From assembly GCA_050250895.1 (NCBI GenBank), contig JBFWNU010000004.1, positions 334,934 through 398,933 of the forward strand: a DNA stretch of 64,000 nt, in the 5' to 3' direction. The translations under genes were made by a program, and so were the position numbers. Shown piece by piece: positions 5,496 through 12,297 of this stretch (within the stretch, counting starts at the first letter, position 1; each line of letters opens with the position of its first letter). This DNA comes from Vulcanimicrobiota bacterium (GTDB lineage Bacteria > Vulcanimicrobiota > Xenobia > Xenobiales > JADMJV01). Under the pieces are notes generated by a model. That model was not told where the DNA came from. It did not search any database and worked only from the letters and a program-made list of their open reading frames with translations.

Positions 5496-6728
5496 ATGCA
5501 CGCGACCCGAACCCTGAGCCAGGCCGCCGACACCACCGAGCGCATTCGCCGACTGATGAAAGGTCATACCGACCGCCAGGCCGAGGCAGAGATCCTGGCT
5601 TTGCTAGACGAGCAGTCCGCGCCCGACCTCAACTACGTGTTGGAGCACCTTGACCTGGAAGCGCTCTTCAACGATGTCGACGATCACCTCTGGGGGCCTC
5701 AAAACAAGACCCGATTGCTCGAAATGCTGGGCCGCGAACGGCTGGGCGACCTGGATTCGCCGGCCCGGGCCGCCATCATCGATGGTCTGCAGCGGGGTTG
5801 GACGGCCCTGACCGAGGAAGAACGCCGAAGTCGCGTCGAGGGCGGCGGAGGCAGCGAAGAGCGGGCCATTCGAGATGTCTTCGTCGGCACCCACGGCCAC
5901 CAACTCACCGAGGTCAAAAACCTGGTCAACGCTGGCGCCGACCACTACGACATGCACAATCTGTTGGGGCACGATGTGGACGACCCCAACCTGGTCGGCC
6001 AGATGCTCGATCACTTTGCCGCCACCCCGAGGCGAGGCGAAATCAAGCCGCTGAGCGACATCGACGACACTTTCTATGCCAACTGGAAAGACCAGCGCTT
6101 TCCCTCGAAGACCGTCTATCCGGGCGTGCTCGCCTTCTATCAAGAACTCGACCGCGGCCCCGACGAGGCTCATCCCCAGCCCCTGGGCGACCTGACCTTC
6201 CTCACGGCCCGCCCCGAGGACCCATGGGGCATCGTCAAAGACCGGGCCCACCGCGATCTTCGTCAACGCGGCATCCCCCACGCGGCGGTGCTGGCCGGCT
6301 CGGTCACGACCCTGGCCGACAACGAGAAGATCGCCCGCAAGAAGTTCGAGAACTTCGAGGAATACGCCCGCATCTATCCCGAGTACGACTTCGCCTGGAT
6401 TGGCGACAGCGGTCAAGGCGACGCCATGCTGGCCGAGCGCCTGCTAAGTAGCCACCCCGAGCGGGTCAAGGGAGCCTTCATTCACGACGTGGTCGGCCTT
6501 GACGACCAGGCTCGCCAGCAATTACGCGAGCGGGGAGTGCGCGTCTTCGACACCTACGTGGGAGCGGCCCTCGAGGCCCATCAGGCCGGCCTCATCTCGT
6601 CCGAGGGCGTGCAACGGGTTGCCCAGGCCGCCCAGCAAGACTTCTCTCGTCTCGAATTCAGCGATGACCGGCAGCGCCAGGCCCGCCTCGTCGAACTACA
6701 AGCCGACCTGTCTCGAGTCCAGCAATAG
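5496..6728 (+). CDS. App1/DUF2183-like HAD phosphatase with helical N-terminal region
   Basis: SDIDDTF, FLTARP and IGDSGQGD motifs. Confidence 0.75.
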   Translation: MHATRTLSQAADTTERIRRLMKGHTDRQAEAEILALLDEQSAPDLNYVLEHLDLEALFNDVDDHLWGPQNKTRLLEMLGRERLGDLDSPARAAIIDGLQRGWTALTEEERRSRVEGGGGSEERAIRDVFVGTHGHQLTEVKNLVNAGADHYDMHNLLGHDVDDPNLVGQMLDHFAATPRRGEIKPLSDIDDTFYANWKDQRFPSKTVYPGVLAFYQELDRGPDEAHPQPLGDLTFLTARPEDPWGIVKDRAHRDLRQRGIPHAAVLAGSVTTLADNEKIARKKFENFEEYARIYPEYDFAWIGDSGQGDAMLAERLLSSHPERVKGAFIHDVVGLDDQARQQLRERGVRVFDTYVGAALEAHQAGLISSEGVQRVAQAAQQDFSRLEFSDDRQRQARLVELQADLSRVQQ

Positions 6729-6895
6729 CCAGGGATGTATCCATTAGAATCCCCCGGTTGGCTTCGCTAGAAGACTATTCTGAGAGACTGATTCACGCTA
6801 TTCTTTCTGTAGAGGCCACGACACGAACGGCCTACCAAGAACAAAATTCAGGAAGTCACGACTTCCGCAGGTTTCGGCCCCAGGCAGGGGCCGTC

Positions 6896-6934
6896 AAGAA
6901 AGAGGCCCCGGGCCAGAACCCCGGGACCTCTTTC
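6896..6934 (-). terminator. Intrinsic terminator hairpin, better formed on the minus strand
   Basis: 15-bp stem 6898-6912/6920-6934; C/A mismatch on plus is G-U on minus; ends in UCUUUCUU on minus. Confidence 0.6.
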
Positions 6935-6957
6935 GCATTTGGCGAGATCCCCAAAAA

Positions 6958-7074
6958 TGTTAAGCAAACTTAACAAATTGCCCCCTAGACGAACCGGTTC
7001 GAGGTGGGATACCACTAGTGCACACTACTCCAAAAAGTCGCCTCGGGACTGCCATCCCGGGGCTTTTCTCTTTT
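6958..7074 (+). repeat. Dispersed repeat copy 1 (operator-promoter-sRNA-terminator unit)
   Basis: TGTTAAG-CAAA-CTTAACA, CCCCTAGACGA, GTGGGATACC, GTGCACACTACTCCAA and hairpin shared with copies 2 and 3. Confidence 0.92.
7017..7074 (+). ncRNA. Putative ~58-nt small RNA, paralog 1
   Basis: Follows TAGACG-N16-GATACC promoter-like motif; GCCUCGGGA/UCCCGGGGC stem and U tail. Confidence 0.6.
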
Positions 7075-7119
7075 AAGGCCCCACGGAATAGGCGGGTCGT
7101 CTCTGCCGACCGTGGGAAG

Positions 7120-7527
7120 ATGAAACGACTGCTCCTTTTCTTGCTCCTACTCAGCCCCGCTTTCGCCCAGGTCGAGACCCTCTCGGTGGACGGCATCTAT
7201 CTCGACACCCCTGCTTCCCAGCAGGCCTGGCTGCCCAACCCCTGCCCGGATGGCAGCTACACCGCCGGGGAGACCACCGTCGAAGTCCGCTCGGGCAAGA
7301 TCATCAACGTGACCGGCACCTTCCTGAGCATGGGCCACCACCAAATGGCCGCGGTGGGCCAGGCGACCGACGAACTCGCGCTAACGCTCGGCCAGCCCAG
7401 CGACACGCTCTATGGTTGCGGCCCCCAGCGAGGCGACCACGTGCGATTCTATCACCATCTGGGCGTCATCGTTTGCGGAGGCGAGAAGGTCACCCAGGTG
7501 CGCCTAGAACACGTTAAGAAACCTTAA
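7120..7527 (+). CDS. Secreted hypothetical protein (paralog of 10165-10686)
   Basis: Signal peptide MKRLLLFLLLLSPAFA; stop codon lies inside the operator of repeat copy 2. Confidence 0.75.
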   Translation: MKRLLLFLLLLSPAFAQVETLSVDGIYLDTPASQQAWLPNPCPDGSYTAGETTVEVRSGKIINVTGTFLSMGHHQMAAVGQATDELALTLGQPSDTLYGCGPQRGDHVRFYHHLGVIVCGGEKVTQVRLEHVKKP

Positions 7528-7646
7528 CAATCCAACCCCTAGACGACCGGCGGAGGAGTGGGATACCCATGGTGCACACTACTCCAATAGCTGCCTCGGG
7601 ACCGCCATCCCGGGGCGTTTCTCTTTTTGAGCATCTTCAAGAACTC
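7508..7646 (+). repeat. Dispersed repeat copy 2
   Basis: Near-identical to 8440-8579 except in the promoter spacer. Confidence 0.92.
7571..7628 (+). ncRNA. Putative small RNA, paralog 2
   Basis: Same promoter geometry, invariant 16-mer 7572-7587, terminator. Confidence 0.6.
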
Positions 7647-7724
7647 GCTCCGTGTGGCCGTCCGGCAGAAAAGTGTAATGAACTGGACGCAGGAATCTGC
7701 CTGATCATTGGGAACGACGGTCAT

Positions 7725-8420
7725 ATGTCCAACACCTACAGAATCATGCCGTCCCACTCGGAGTATCTTGCCATAGAAGTTGTCGGCGAAGAGATGCTCG
7801 TCTTCGACCCGATGTCTGGGCGGGCGCACTGCCTGGACAAAATCACCGCAACGGTATTCCAGGCGTGCGACGGAAGAACCCAGATGCACGAAGTCGCCCA
7901 TCGACTAGGCGACGGCGGCGGCGACCTATTGATTCTCACCCTCGAAAAACTACGCCAGGCGAATTTGATAGATGGGGCCCCGGCCAAGACCACCACCCGC
8001 CGAGAGTTGTTGGCAGGGCTAGGACGAATTGGTGTCGCCTTGCCACTGATCACCTCGTTGGCGGTCCCCCGTCCCGCCGCGGCGGCGTCGTGTGTTGCAA
8101 ACTGCATTGGGGAGGGCCTACCGGTCGTAGATGCTAACGGAAATCCGACGGGGTGCGCGGCCTGTCTACCTTCCATAGGAGCTACAACTTGTCCAACCAC
8201 TTTCTGCATGTCCTTCTACGAGTGTTTTGATACTGGGAACAACATCGTCCCCTGTAACAGCGCTGCGGCCGGCCCTTCTCTTTGCGACGACCCCATCAAC
8301 AGCCGCGATACACCAACCGGTTTCACCGGATGCCAATCCACGTCCAGCAACGCCAACCCTTCCTGCGCTACGGCTCGAAATACATCCGCTAGCCTCTACA
8401 TTTGCTGTTCGTGTTCTTAG
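7725..8420 (+). CDS. PqqD/RRE-domain protein fused to Tat-like leader and Cys-rich tail
   Basis: EMLVFDxxxGRAHCLDxxTATVFQACDG (PqqD-like); TRRELL...PLITSLAVPRPAAAAS; 14 Cys in tail; start 7725 or 7746. Confidence 0.75.
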   Translation: MSNTYRIMPSHSEYLAIEVVGEEMLVFDPMSGRAHCLDKITATVFQACDGRTQMHEVAHRLGDGGGDLLILTLEKLRQANLIDGAPAKTTTRRELLAGLGRIGVALPLITSLAVPRPAAAASCVANCIGEGLPVVDANGNPTGCAACLPSIGATTCPTTFCMSFYECFDTGNNIVPCNSAAAGPSLCDDPINSRDTPTGFTGCQSTSSNANPSCATARNTSASLYICCSCS

Positions 8421-8439
8421 GGCTCCGGGAGGCGACCAC

Positions 8440-8579
8440 AACACATTAAGAAGCCTTAACAATTTAACCCCTAGACGAACGGCCCAGGAGTGGGATACCC
8501 ATAGTGCACACTACTCCAATAGCTGCCTCGGGACCGCCATCCCGGGGCGTTTCTCTTTTTGGAGCACCTTCAACAACTC
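8440..8579 (+). repeat. Dispersed repeat copy 3
   Basis: Near-identical to 7508-7646. Confidence 0.92.
8503..8560 (+). ncRNA. Putative small RNA, paralog 3 (antisense to 3' end of S41 gene)
   Basis: 8504-8560 is identical to 7572-7628. Confidence 0.6.
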
Positions 8580-9689
8580 TCGAAATCCGGCCTCGGGCAG
8601 CGGGTCGGGACCCTCGTTCCACCCCACTTCGACATCCGGGGCAACCCCCACGCCCTCGAGCCGCTCGCCGTCGACCCTGACATCGGCCTGAGCGAGATAA
8701 AGGGCGTGACCGTCCGGCAGCAGGTGCAAGCCGCCACCCAGCACCGCGCCGCGCGTCTTCTCGCCCACCAGCAGCCCCCGCCGCGAGCGCTTGAAGGCGT
8801 GAGCCAGCAGCTCTTTACCACTGCTGACGCTGCCGTCGATCAGGACCACGACTGGGCGATTCCAGGTCGAGCCCGGCAGGTCGAACTTCTCGCCCTCGGG
8901 CGAAGTCATCGTCAACGACGGAGTGGCCGCGAAAAGCTCCATGTACTTGGGCTGGGCCCCACCCCAACTGCCCCTCAAGTCCAGCACCAGCCCCTCGGCG
9001 CCGGCCAGGGGACCTTCGAGCACGGCCCGGAGTTCTTCTTGATAAGCCTCACCAGCGTAGGACCACATCCTGACATAGGCGAGGCGACGGCCCTCGTGCT
9101 CTTGCATCCTGGCCGAGGCGCGGATGGCCTGCAGAAAGAACCGCCGCGGCTGGATATCCTGGGGCACGACCTCGAGTTCAAGCGCATCCCCTCGCTTCTC
9201 GATGGTCAGCCGGCACGCTTTACCGGCCCTGCCCCGGAACGAGTCGATGGGATGAAAGGGCTGCCCATCCACGCTCACGATTCGATCGCCACGCTGCAAC
9301 TGATGGCCCGGCCCACCCGGAACGACATCCCAAACCACCCCCTCGCGCGTGACCACACCGATGCCCTCGTAGTGCGGCAACTCCCCGCCAAAGAGCGCCG
9401 TGATGGCCTCTGCCTGGGGACCGTAGGCGAACACGTCCAGCAACTCATAGTAGGCTGGCTCGCGAGCGCTGTAGAGGTGGGTGTGCGAGGCCTCGAGCCG
9501 GGCCAGATAGTCATTCACCACTTTCACCCGCTGCTCGCCATCGAGCCCCTCGACCGCCTCGGACGCCTCCTGCCGAAAGCGCTCGAAGTCGTTGGCTCGA
9601 TAAAACCCGCTGGCCACCAGCGACCAGACCCTTTCGACCAAAGTGTCCTGGACGGGATGGAGCAGCAGAAGCAGCAGCAGAAATCTCAT
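8511..9689 (-). CDS. S41 family (C-terminal processing) peptidase with PDZ domain
   Basis: Signal peptide; LEASHT, GDRIVSVDG, LDLRGSWGG, SSGKE, LEGVGVAPD. Confidence 0.9.
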   Translation of the reverse strand: MRFLLLLLLLHPVQDTLVERVWSLVASGFYRANDFERFRQEASEAVEGLDGEQRVKVVNDYLARLEASHTHLYSAREPAYYELLDVFAYGPQAEAITALFGGELPHYEGIGVVTREGVVWDVVPGGPGHQLQRGDRIVSVDGQPFHPIDSFRGRAGKACRLTIEKRGDALELEVVPQDIQPRRFFLQAIRASARMQEHEGRRLAYVRMWSYAGEAYQEELRAVLEGPLAGAEGLVLDLRGSWGGAQPKYMELFAATPSLTMTSPEGEKFDLPGSTWNRPVVVLIDGSVSSGKELLAHAFKRSRRGLLVGEKTRGAVLGGGLHLLPDGHALYLAQADVRVDGERLEGVGVAPDVEVGWNEGPDPLPEAGFRELLKVLQKEKRPGMAVPRQLLE

Positions 9690-10164: not shown

Positions 10165-10686
10165 ATGGCCATCTCGGACGCCGCGCTCTTTCGCCTGCGA
10201 ATGCTGGCTCTGCTAGGCGTGGCCCTGGTGCTGGGGGCCGTCACGCTCATACTCGACGCCGCCCCCTGGCAAGGCAAAGTGCGGGGACTTGATTGGCGAG
10301 CCTTCACCGTCGACGGGGTGGCTCTGGGCGACACGCCCACCCAGGTCGAGGCCTTCTGGCCCGGCGGGTTTCACAAGGCAGCCTGGCCTGGTACAGAGCA
10401 CTGGTCGAGCGACATCTCGAACTTGTATGTCGAGTTCCACAACGGGACCGTCGACTGGGTTTCGGGCACCCAACTGCGAGCCGGGGACTACCTCCTCGAG
10501 GTCGGGGATTCGGTCGCCCAAGCCAAACAGGTTATGGGACGACCCCGGCGTTACCGAGACTCTATCGGCAGCCTCTACTATGGCTACCGCAAACGCGACA
10601 TCCTGGTCGAGCTTCAGGTGGACGACCGACTCGAGCGCGTCCTGCGCGTGGACCTCAAGCGAGTCGAATCCGAGCCCGACCACTGA
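10165..10686 (+). CDS. Membrane-anchored or secreted hypothetical protein (paralog of 7120-7527)
   Basis: N-terminal hydrophobic helix; VDGVALGDT and VGDSxxxxxxxMGRP pseudo-repeats. Confidence 0.7.
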   Translation: MAISDAALFRLRMLALLGVALVLGAVTLILDAAPWQGKVRGLDWRAFTVDGVALGDTPTQVEAFWPGGFHKAAWPGTEHWSSDISNLYVEFHNGTVDWVSGTQLRAGDYLLEVGDSVAQAKQVMGRPRRYRDSIGSLYYGYRKRDILVELQVDDRLERVLRVDLKRVESEPDH

Positions 10687-10699
10687 CTCGACTCGCCCA

Positions 10700-10797
10700 C
10701 TACCGTCTACCGTCTACCGTCTGACGACTACCGTCTACCGTCTGACGACTACCGTCTACCGTCTGACGACGACCGTCTACCGTCTGACGACTACCGT
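10700..10797. repeat. Heptamer tandem repeat with 21-nt higher-order unit
   Basis: 14 units of CTACCGT/CTGACGA between convergent genes. Confidence 0.95.
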
Positions 10798-10802
10798 CTG
10801 TC

Positions 10803-11840
10803 TCAGGCGTCCCAGCCCAGGTTCTGGCAATAGGCGTGCATGTCGGGGTCGACCTTGAGCAGATGAGCCCGCTTTTCGGGCGAGTGGAGATAGTCGGCCA
10901 TGGCCTCGGCCAGATACTCTTCGGGGCGGCGCTCGGTGGCCGCATAGGCCGAGATCATCGAATCAGGATTCTGGTCGGGGATAGTGGCCTCGATGAAGCC
11001 CGGCCGGCTGATGATCTGATCGTCAGCGAAGGTGGCCAGGTCGTTCTCGCGCCTCCAGGCTTTGACCACCTCGGCTGTGTACTTCGCGCCCAAAGCCAGC
11101 ACCGGCACACCGATCAGGGGTGCACCGGCCAGCGAGAGGGTCACCCCGACGGCGTTGATGGCGGCCGCGATCGGCAGTGAGGGTCCGGCATTGACGTAGA
11201 AACGCTGAATGCGGCTGGAGGCGGTCTCGGTCATCAGCAGGCGACCGTCCTTCTCCTCCACCTGACACGCCCGGTAGGGAAAGGGAAGGTCGGTAAAATC
11301 GGTCTTGCCTTTCAAGCGGGCCTGCTGGACATCGTAGGCCAGCTGGCGATGAGCGCGCCGGACAGAGTTCTTATGCAACTCCGCCAGGTTAGGATCGCGG
11401 CGCGAGAAATACTGAGCGCTAAACGGCGTGGCTACTCGCCCGGCCAGCCCCAGGTCGGCGCGCCCCTCGAGATAGTCGACGGCGTGGGTGAGTTCATGCA
11501 ACAGGTAGGTGCGCATGTTCTTGCGGTCGTCGGCCAGCACCGTGATCTCTTTGGTGAGCGGGTTGAAGGTGCCGCCCTGGTTAGGGTCTTTGGTAAAGGT
11601 GATCCGCACCCCGGCCTCGCGCAGGCGGGCCTGCAGGTCGGGGCGGAACGACTCGAGGGCCTTCTTGGCATCGGCTTTGATCCAGTCGGGCAGCTTCTTC
11701 TGGGTGAGGAACTCGCGAAAGTCGAGCGGCCTGGCCTCGACGCTATCGGTGATGAGGGCTGGCTGGGCCTGGGGTCGGGAAGCAGCGGGCCGCGCCGGAA
11801 GAGGCGTAGCCGTAGTCAGAGGACCGATCTTTCCCAACAT
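10803..11840 (-). CDS. Zinc metallopeptidase (anthrax lethal factor/MtfA-like) with inserted hydrophobic hairpin
   Basis: LLHELTHAVD plus SAYAATxxxPEEYLAEA. Confidence 0.7.
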   Translation of the reverse strand: MLGKIGPLTTATPLPARPAASRPQAQPALITDSVEARPLDFREFLTQKKLPDWIKADAKKALESFRPDLQARLREAGVRITFTKDPNQGGTFNPLTKEITVLADDRKNMRTYLLHELTHAVDYLEGRADLGLAGRVATPFSAQYFSRRDPNLAELHKNSVRRAHRQLAYDVQQARLKGKTDFTDLPFPYRACQVEEKDGRLLMTETASSRIQRFYVNAGPSLPIAAAINAVGVTLSLAGAPLIGVPVLALGAKYTAEVVKAWRRENDLATFADDQIISRPGFIEATIPDQNPDSMISAYAATERRPEEYLAEAMADYLHSPEKRAHLLKVDPDMHAYCQNLGWDA

Positions 11841-11868: not shown

Positions 11869-12297
11869 CTAGAAACCGTAGTTGGCGTTGAGTCCGGCGA
11901 GTAGCGGATTGAGCAGGCTGGCATCGGCCAACAACTGCTGCTGCTGGGCCCCGGCCTTCATTCCGCCGGCCAGGGTGCTGGTGCCGATGGTGCCGGCGAT
12001 GTTGGCGTCGCTGGCGCCCAACTGGGCCATGGCCGCCTGGTTGGCCAGCGAGCCGCCGCCCGAAAGGTCAGGGGGAAGACTGGCGTCGGCGGGCGGGATA
12101 CCGGCCATGGCTAGCTCAGGAGAGGCAGAAAACCCATCCGTCAACCCGCCACCGCCGCCGCAGAGAGGACATCCGCCCCCACCCATGGTCGGGTCGAGAG
12201 GCAGCGCGGCCGCGCCAGCAGTAGGGTCGAGCATCGAAGCACCGAGGGAGGGCATTCCGAGACCTCCACCCATTCCTAGACCACCGATGTTGAACAT
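11869..12297 (-). CDS. Gly/Ala/Met-rich low-complexity protein with CPLC motif
   Basis: GAGGAG RBS and TAAACT -10 upstream. Confidence 0.65.
   Translation of the reverse strand: MFNIGGLGMGGGLGMPSLGASMLDPTAGAAALPLDPTMGGGGCPLCGGGGGLTDGFSASPELAMAGIPPADASLPPDLSGGGSLANQAAMAQLGASDANIAGTIGTSTLAGGMKAGAQQQQLLADASLLNPLLAGLNANYGF

Follow-up and report, generated by a model that had tools for sequence, protein, structure and literature searches.

Candidate genes for a family of short sibling RNAs in two genera of the Vulcanimicrobiota

Introduction

Several groups of bacterial small RNAs (sRNAs) occur as multicopy siblings. The CiaR-dependent small RNAs (csRNAs) of streptococci have their own promoters with a repeat of TTAAG-like half-sites (a direct repeat, TTTAAG-N5-TTTAAG, adjoining the -10 box), a C/U-rich segment that resembles an anti-Shine-Dalgarno sequence, and a terminator hairpin. 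LhrC1-5 of Listeria and Qrr1-5 of Vibrio are multicopy siblings too, partly in tandem, each set belonging to one signalling pathway: LhrC directs C/U-rich sites, located in loops and single-stranded stretches, against purine-rich ribosome-binding regions, and the Qrr genes have sigma-54 promoters. The enterobacterial OmrA and OmrB are encoded by two adjacent sibling genes, are activated by an OmpR-family regulator, depend on Hfq and carry their seed at the 5' end; Hfq-associated mRNA-pairing RNAs usually consist of a 5' seed followed by a U-tailed terminator. Here we analyse an element that is present three times in a stretch of 64,000 nucleotides (nt) from a Vulcanimicrobiota bacterium (assembly GCA_050250895.1, contig JBFWNU010000004.1, positions 334,934 to 398,933; hereafter the window), and that probably represents a family of short RNA genes resembling these systems in design.

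Results

Three units share one geometry

The three units lie on the plus strand and carry their parts in identical order: a palindrome, 10 nt, the box CTAGAC, a variable stretch of 14 nt, the box TGGGATA, 6 nt, the invariant GTGCACACTACTCCAA, a 9-bp GC-rich hairpin and a T tract (Table 1). A shared geometry of this kind had been claimed in an original prediction made from the letters of the window, and every element was found at its claimed place, far beyond chance expectation: the 16-mer GTGCACACTACTCCAA occurs three times versus 0.02 expected, and the palindrome pattern three times versus 0.24 expected, a count that none of 100 shuffles reached. A repeat search of the window recovered an 80-nt block in three copies (75-78% identity to the reference copy) and a 42-nt block in three copies (88%), and a terminator scan called all three hairpins. 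Mean column identity in a three-way alignment is 83%. The alignment also contains the 1-nt indel that had been said to separate copy 1 from copy 2 and to break any shared reading frame: it follows CTCCAA and distinguishes copy 1 from copies 2 and 3. The latter two share 88% identity along 143 nt, of which about 20 nt are flank, and because identity extends into the flank, a local duplication has occurred. An assembly artefact is an unlikely source of the triplication, since no two copies are identical, unique sequence lies between them and independent assemblies contain similar arrays.

The units belong to a family with 37 distinct members

A BLAST search of the unit against the whole genome assembly from which the window comes (9.5 Mb, 17 contigs, 63% GC; C-numbers below denote its contigs) identified copies 4 (C2:846436-846551) and 5 (C6:495125-495174; partial). 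A covariance model built from six units returned exactly five copies in this genome (E 7e-23 to 2e-15; next match 0.055), and also matched the sister species and one sister genus. With a second, wider model, built from 24 members, matches were obtained in 9 of the 44 genomes of the class: besides the genome itself, these were the one other genome of its genus (g1) and seven of the eight genomes of the sister genus (g3), versus none of six in genus g2 and none of 28 in families f2, f3, f4 and f5. Five of the matching genomes hold 5, 3, 6, 6 and 4 copies and the other four hold one copy each; one contig has three copies in tandem, 268 and 398 nt apart from start to start. A third model, restricted to the RNA, gave the same distribution among genomes. 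Its two extra full-length matches, both in family f3, were rejected: they have no GCACAC seed, and the one readable flank places its match as a terminator behind a tRNA gene (the other flank is masked).

Pattern scans of public collections contributed 9 further genome stretches and 10 metagenome stretches, for a total of 46 matches that represent 37 distinct sequences. The multicopy family that had been proposed from the three window copies is thus borne out by five copies in this genome and 37 distinct copies overall. Judged by these searches, the family appears confined to two genera, the organism's own and one sister genus, of the uncultured soil phylum Eremiobacterota/Vulcanimicrobiota. 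The public records that hold matches are titled as metagenome-assembled genomes. One of them, titled as a member of the Selenomonadaceae (a family of Firmicutes), holds a complete unit of the GCACACUCCUCG seed type (L102, 3380-3540), and its label or binning may be off; the other records that hold units are titled Vulcanimicrobiota or just 'bacterium'.

The original prediction had not recognised the family, and comparison with Rfam 15 gave the same answer: the whole window has no match at gathering thresholds, positions 6700-8800 searched up to E = 10 yielded weak microRNA and sRNA chance matches, all below threshold, and six copy-bearing loci from four genomes yielded one unrelated sub-threshold match.

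Table 1. Coordinates of the repeat units and of associated open reading frames (ORFs); positions without a contig prefix refer to the window
Feature	Position	Strand	Remarks
Copy 1, full unit	6959-7074	+	
Copy 1, palindrome GTTAAG-CAAA-CTTAAC	6959-6974	+	TTAA-N6-TTAAC box; centre ~53 nt 5' of inferred start
Copy 1, promoter boxes	6985-7011	+	CTAGAC 6985-6990, variable spacer, TGGGATA 7005-7011; not called sigma-70 type
Copy 1, invariant GTGCACACTACTCCAA	7018-7033	+	
Copy 1, inferred RNA (~55 nt)	7020-7074	+	5' GCACACUACUCC 7020-7031; hairpin 7040-7063 (stem 7040-7048/7055-7063); U tract 7064-7074; ends inferred
Copy 2, full unit	7513-7628	+	
Copy 2, palindrome GTTAAG-AAAC-CTTAAC	7513-7528	+	Overlaps stop codon of ORF 7120-7527
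Copy 2, promoter boxes	7539-7565	+	CTAGAC 7539-7544, TGGGATA 7559-7565
Copy 2, invariant GTGCACACTACTCCAA	7572-7587	+	
Copy 2, inferred RNA	7574-7628	+	Seed 7574-7585; hairpin 7593-7616 (stem 7593-7601/7608-7616); U tract to 7628
Copy 3, full unit	8445-8560	+	
Copy 3, palindrome ATTAAG-AAGC-CTTAAC	8445-8460	+	
Copy 3, promoter boxes	8471-8497	+	CTAGAC 8471-8476, TGGGATA 8491-8497
Copy 3, invariant GTGCACACTACTCCAA	8504-8519	+	
Copy 3, inferred RNA	8506-8560	+	Seed 8506-8517; hairpin 8525-8548 (stem 8525-8533/8540-8548); U tract to 8560
ORF, 135 residues	7120-7527	+	Between copies 1 and 2; signal-peptide-like start; no Pfam family
ORF, 231 residues	7725-8420	+	Between copies 2 and 3; no Pfam family; Cys-rich C-terminal third (many C in last 100 residues)
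S41 peptidase gene	8511-9689	-	Convergent; ends at copy 3
Paralogues of 133-135 residues	C8:237944-238342, C14:41344-41748, C1:1902636-1903004, C1:1894177-1894572		

Conserved boxes, an invariant start and a covarying hairpin

Across the 37 sequences, conservation of at least 90% is concentrated in three blocks, TAGAC, G.GG.A.A and GCACACT.CT, while the 15-nt spacer that separates TAGAC from GGGATA is variable, as is the linker from seed to hairpin. The invariant GCACACU.CU sits at the expected transcription start. The hairpin varies in sequence and keeps its pairing: in an alignment of 24 rows, 96.2% of cells are paired compared to 82.6% in shuffles, seven of the nine pairs have changes on both sides, and none of 500 shuffles reached the observed values. 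Sliding the partner strand by 1-3 columns lowers pairing to 25-60%, and compensatory exchanges of A-U to C-G and of C-G to U-A are plain in the rows. In predicted folds of all five copies of this genome the first 15-22 nt are open and the terminator hairpin is the only structure placed (-14.5 to -20.7 kcal/mol, z -2.1 to -3.6); the one sister-genus copy that was folded has a weak 4-bp 5' helix.

The 5' segment occurs in three seed types. Members of the organism's own genus carry GCACACUACUCC, for which the sister genus has GCACACUUCUUGGUC or GCACACUCCUCG as its counterpart: the multicopy members of that genus show (AA)GCACACUUCUUGGUCGG, and single copies behind a MocR-like gene in three of its genomes show GCACACUCCUCGUA. 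This C/U-rich segment resembles an anti-Shine-Dalgarno sequence. The genome also encodes Hfq (domain at C6:536576-536764, 85 bits versus a cut-off of 27).

Because the boxes are conserved around a free spacer, the start is invariant, the hairpin covaries and a U tract follows, we regard the units as most likely genes for a short RNA.

The boxes differ from a housekeeping promoter

The tRNA genes of this genome have canonical promoters of the form TTGAC-N17-(TG)CTATAAT. The units carry TAGAC and GGGATA instead, and across the family there is no conserved T at -7. A scanner for sigma-70 promoters (TTGACA-N16-18-TATAAT, the -10 box having A as its second and T as its sixth base) called none in the units. 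By sequence, then, the boxes do not look like a housekeeping promoter. When the genome was scored with a position weight matrix of the boxes, the five copies ranked first (20.9-35.4 bits), followed by a handful of intergenic sites. A box at C2:650637 before a PilZ gene was rejected as a regulon member, as it is not conserved before the orthologue in the sister species. A search of five relatives for exact CTAGAC-N15-GGGATA returned 11 matches, eight of them sRNA copies and three others, versus six for a reversed control, so that exact boxes outside the sRNA genes do not exceed the control. At one exact match (L153; G007:C139:31597-31623, minus strand), a different short hairpin, GCGCGAAAATTTTCGCGC, with TTTTT behind it, follows within about 15 nt, and this locus may encode a second tiny RNA behind the same promoter type.

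A non-housekeeping sigma factor may read the units, an assignment that we make tentatively. The genome has 26 genes of the sigma-70 family, among them a SigB/F/G-type gene (C7:240287-240961; 287 bits versus a cut-off of 234) behind RsbV- and RsbW-like genes; three further matches to the SigB/F/G model (C1:575863, C1:1293988 and C1:2277096) are below the cut-off. The TAGAC/GGGATA box was absent upstream of the SigB/F/G operon, of three sigma-70-family genes (279-311 residues) and of a 331-residue RpoD/RpoS-like gene, the best score upstream of sigma genes being 5.7 compared to at least 20.9 for the sRNA copies, a value taken from a slightly different matrix. SigB/F/G genes and the RNA show no telling co-occurrence: the gene scores above the cut-off in 24 of the 44 genomes of the class, including five of the six genomes of genus g2, which lacks the RNA.

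A sigma-54 promoter was rejected, since the spacing of TGGCAC-N5-TTGC is off by at least one base in the units (judged by eye). The sigma-28 promoter consensus is TAAA-N15-GCCGATAA; the units, with TAGA-N15-TGGGATAC or TAGA-N15-TGGGATA(C/A), have equal spacing but match only three of the four and four of the eight bases. At C4:16689 (minus strand), AAGGAGG and an ATG come after a canonical sigma-28-like site, TAAAG-N14-GCCGATAC, so that a classical FliA-type promoter seems to exist in this genome beside the TAGAC/GGGATA type. For cyanobacterial SigF, one report describes a promoter with TAGGC at -32 and GGTAA at -12 (PMC2532724). The GATA core and TAG.C box of the units resemble both the sigma-28 promoter and this SigF promoter.

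The upstream palindrome is local, and a related motif is abundant

Only the three window copies have the palindrome in perfect form. The C2 copy (GTTCAG-N4-CATAAC) and the sister species carry a degenerate version of it, and in the C6 copy and most copies of the sister genus its place is taken by A-tract/T-tract sequence, often palindromic. Given this pattern, the palindrome is not a defining part of the family. It had been proposed that one dimeric factor controls all copies; the palindromes on which this proposal was built are present, and a factor that binds as a dimer or in tandem is plausible for this genome only, as they are not family-wide.

The half-sites recur in a wider motif. TTAA-N7-TTAAC occurs 15 and 16 times on the two strands of this genome versus about 0.42 expected; the N6 spacing of the units occurs 8 and 7 times and other spacings 0-5 times, so that genome-wide counts peak at N7, with a lesser peak at N6. 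The N7 motif usually takes the form GTTAAC-N5-GTTAAC (for example at C1:1467434, C1:1476287 upstream of flgB, C1:1894643, C1:2117777, C2:240221, C3:51389 and C5:258874). Seventeen two-sided sites were found, apparently upstream of genes (by eye). Among 18 neighbouring genes scanned, two encode flagellar rod proteins, one flgF/G-like (FlgE/F/G D1 and Flg_bbr_C domains) and one flgB-like (Flg_bb_rod), both downstream of motif sites; there was one sub-threshold match to GspD N0, and the rest are unrelated or without family. TTAA-N7-TTAAC is the CtrA box of Alphaproteobacteria, which the excess in this genome recalls; unlike that box, the sRNA sites have N6, and the organism is not an alphaproteobacterium. 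No CtrA equivalog was detected in the genome: the best of 19 near-full-length and 6 partial (receiver-domain) matches scored 162 bits versus a cut-off of 350. The genome has roughly 19 regulators of the OmpR family. From the shared half-sites, a transcription factor common to the N7 sites and the sRNA copies is plausible.

Genomic context

The array is flanked by genes for a 5'-nucleotidase, an APP1-like phosphatase and the S41 peptidase; since the last is convergent, no plus-strand gene follows copy 3. The two ORFs that alternate with the copies had been called cargo genes, a label that did not hold up: neither has a Pfam family and neither is linked to copies elsewhere. Among 36 copies across the family, crude ORF calls place a same-strand gene upstream in 24, and within 400 nt downstream a convergent gene in 14, a same-strand ORF in 6 and nothing in 16. 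Flanking genes are common only to syntenic loci of close relatives. The downstream counts, together with flanks that are unshared outside syntenic loci, disfavour both a leader or attenuator role and a mobile unit with cargo.

Two features elsewhere in the window were noted in passing. Five tandem copies of a 21-nt unit (CGTCTACCGTCTACCGTCTGA-like) occupy 10683-10808, where the ORFs 10165-10686 (plus strand) and 10803-11840 (minus strand) converge. A small Gly-rich protein with Cys clusters is encoded at 11869-12297 (minus strand, 142 residues), and another by a gene near C1:1744046 (103 residues), which has AAGGAGUGUGC directly before its ATG.

Candidate targets

The original prediction suggested that a CUACUCC seed could pair with GGAG ribosome-binding sites. 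The likeness of the C/U-rich segment to an anti-Shine-Dalgarno sequence stands; the expectation that seed complements would be enriched at 1487 confidently assigned start regions was not borne out (see below). A genome-wide duplex search was uninformative, with 6008 sites at or below -14 kcal/mol at the GC content of this genome, and ACCAAGAAGTG with one mismatch allowed was not commoner than its reversed control. The complement of the 12-mer seed occurs six times, in the five sRNA genes and at one site that is apparently in coding sequence. Start regions of the genes neighbouring the array pair poorly with the seed (ranks 0.11-0.92 among the 1487 reference regions).

Four paralogues of 133-135 residues (52-59% identical, no Pfam family; Table 1) account for two of the three best start regions. 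In all four, GGAG-N-AGUG..GC, a complement of the sRNA seed, stands just before the start codon; the duplex energies are -19.2, -19.1, -16.0 and -11.3 kcal/mol, and the four sites are not independent of one another. A search at E 1e-8 recovered no such paralogues from the 15 remaining genomes of the taxonomic family.

Two further candidates were rejected. The best-scoring start region of all (C4:155745-156893, -20.6 kcal/mol) belongs to a gene for which relatives show domain-level matches only, and no orthologue. The ribosome-binding region of a FliF-like paralogue (C2:555056) reads GAGGAGUGUGC, but the site is not conserved in five sister-genus orthologues and mismatches the seeds of those genomes; in three genomes of genus g2 there was no start codon in the stretch examined. 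This genome has three FliF-like genes (C1:590956-592503, C1:1473511-1474695 and C2:555135-555986; two above the TIGR00206 cut-off and one weaker), as do several relatives, which suggests that more than one flagellum- or injectisome-like basal body may be encoded.

Discussion

We propose that each unit is an independent sRNA gene. Transcription would proceed from a non-housekeeping promoter, TAGAC-N15-TGGGATA, start at or no more than 2 nt from the G of GCACAC, and stop at the 9-bp GC hairpin and U tract, giving an RNA of about 52-58 nt that consists of the unpaired conserved 5' segment and the terminator hairpin with its U tail. Through its C/U-rich seed, the RNA would base-pair with purine-rich ribosome-binding regions and reduce translation, and the several copies per genome could provide added dosage or separate control. 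In this genome, a transcription factor probably binds the TTAA-N6-TTAAC site about 53 nt upstream of the clustered copies, and the same factor would act at TTAA-N7-TTAAC sites elsewhere, including those upstream of the two flagellar rod genes. An RNA that pairs in trans fits the unpaired 5' segment, the U-tailed terminator and the presence of hfq. The full statement, that the units are sibling genes for trans-acting sRNAs whose 5' seed pairs with mRNAs, is the one we lean towards, with some reserve. The part of the original prediction that combined promoter, short RNA and terminator is supported by boxes kept around a free spacer, the covarying hairpin and the unpaired 5' stretch; no enrichment of target sites appeared.

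Several observations weigh against this proposal. The 7-mer complementary to the invariant seed is present in only 2 of the 1487 start regions, which at 1.9 times the genome rate is not an enrichment, and duplex energies across the same regions do not surpass those of shuffled seeds (58 sites at or below -13 kcal/mol versus 38.7 +/- 27.8). In five sister-genus genomes the 11-mer AAGAAGTGTGC occurs 23 times; 14 occurrences are in sRNA genes, and the other nine are without a recognisable ribosome-binding site and start codon (by eye). The covariation alignment was fitted to the structure of the model, which favours that structure, and its rows are related, so that its cells are not independent. 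The hairpin and U tract are generic, and no more than about 10-12 nt of the RNA are family-specific; in principle these could be needed by the promoter, as an initial transcribed region, rather than by the RNA. Finally, four of the five copies in this genome (1, 2, 4 and 5) have a same-strand ORF 25-110 nt downstream (by eye), and some read-through into these ORFs is conceivable.

These points bear on four alternatives. Failure of complementary sites to cluster at start regions would suit an RNA that is made but does not pair with mRNA, and instead binds or titrates a protein or mimics the 16S rRNA 3' end: only a short part of the candidate RNA is invariant, and that part occupies its extreme 5' end, up to six copies per genome would suit titration, and the conserved 5' CACU(C/A/U)CU(C/U) resembles the anti-Shine-Dalgarno consensus CACCUCCU. 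We think this unlikely, as a 5' single strand, a U-tailed terminator and hfq fit pairing RNAs, the seed differs between subfamilies as expected if targets co-vary, and no protein-binding motif such as a repeated GGA is evident. The ORFs close behind copies 1, 2, 4 and 5, with a GTG or ATG at copies 1 and 2 that is in frame with the next ORF, would agree with cis-acting leaders in which the hairpin is a conditional attenuator and the short RNA a by-product. Such a role is nevertheless improbable: the next gene is convergent at copy 3 and at the sister-species copy, same-strand ORFs are as infrequent downstream as counted above, the contig with three tandem copies has no ORF called between or downstream of them, downstream genes are unrelated, the folds offer no alternative anti-terminator pairing and the 1-nt indel breaks any shared reading frame.

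That same indel, after which the frame differs, makes it barely credible that the conserved start is coding sequence, either for a short peptide (M-H-T-T-P...) or for extra N-terminal residues of the downstream ORFs. ORFs do begin at GTG 7018, ATG 7569 and GTG 8504 and read HTTP, but sister-genus copies are without a start codon there (by eye), and translation would need to cross the terminator. Several copies per genome in unrelated contexts, and the local duplication of copies 2 and 3 with part of their flank, recall a dispersed repeat without an RNA of its own, whether a cassette spread by mobility or recombination in the manner of repetitive extragenic palindromes or miniature inverted-repeat transposable elements, or a reusable promoter-terminator insulator. 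This explanation is quite improbable: the units are not bordered by terminal inverted repeats or target duplications, genomes have few copies (1-6 each; 5 in 9.5 Mb here) and copies share 75-92% identity with box-like conservation. Promoter-like boxes held at fixed spacing around a free spacer, and hairpin pairing kept by compensatory changes, point to selection on function rather than recent spread. We retain trans-acting sibling sRNA genes as the preferred reading.

A more ambitious picture, which we regard as a long shot, is that the family is the RNA output of a dedicated and hitherto undescribed TAGAC-N15-GGGATA promoter class read by a group-3 sigma factor, and that in this genome it is wired together with flagellar rod genes through TTAA-N6/7-TTAAC. 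If so, a motility or developmental programme in the Eremiobacterota (Vulcanimicrobiota) would have a small-RNA arm, and a CtrA-like motif would be in use outside the Alphaproteobacteria. Whatever the wiring, the family is a well-defined candidate supported by covariation, with 37 natural variants and three seed types, and it brings to light two regulatory DNA motifs open to testing without culture, one a class of non-housekeeping promoter and the other the enriched TTAA-N7-TTAAC box that precedes flagellar genes. In our literature search, judged by title or by the start of the abstract, we found no paper on sRNAs in Eremiobacterota/Vulcanimicrobiota.

Among the described systems, csRNAs share with the units sibling copies, a promoter of their own, TTAAG-like half-sites, a C/U-rich segment and a terminator. 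The units differ from csRNAs in that the half-sites form an inverted GTTAAG-N4-CTTAAC about 53 nt upstream of a distinct TAGAC/GGGATA promoter, and in that the predicted RNAs are shorter (about 55 nt), carry the seed at the extreme 5' end, have no Rfam match and occur in an unrelated phylum. Like OmrA and OmrB, the units are adjacent siblings in which the conserved part is the very 5' end; OmrA and OmrB, in contrast, number only two, are longer, and have no sequence or Rfam similarity to the units. As with LhrC and Qrr, the siblings are multicopy and partly in tandem, and the C/U-rich segment is common to LhrC, whereas the seed of the units is 5'-terminal unlike that of LhrC, a properly spaced sigma-54 box such as Qrr genes have is absent, and Rfam gives no match to either family. 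The units probably constitute a new RNA family in the familiar design of multicopy sibling sRNAs and not a new principle; because that design is already familiar, the gain lies in the family itself and in the entry point that it offers into gene control in an uncultured phylum.

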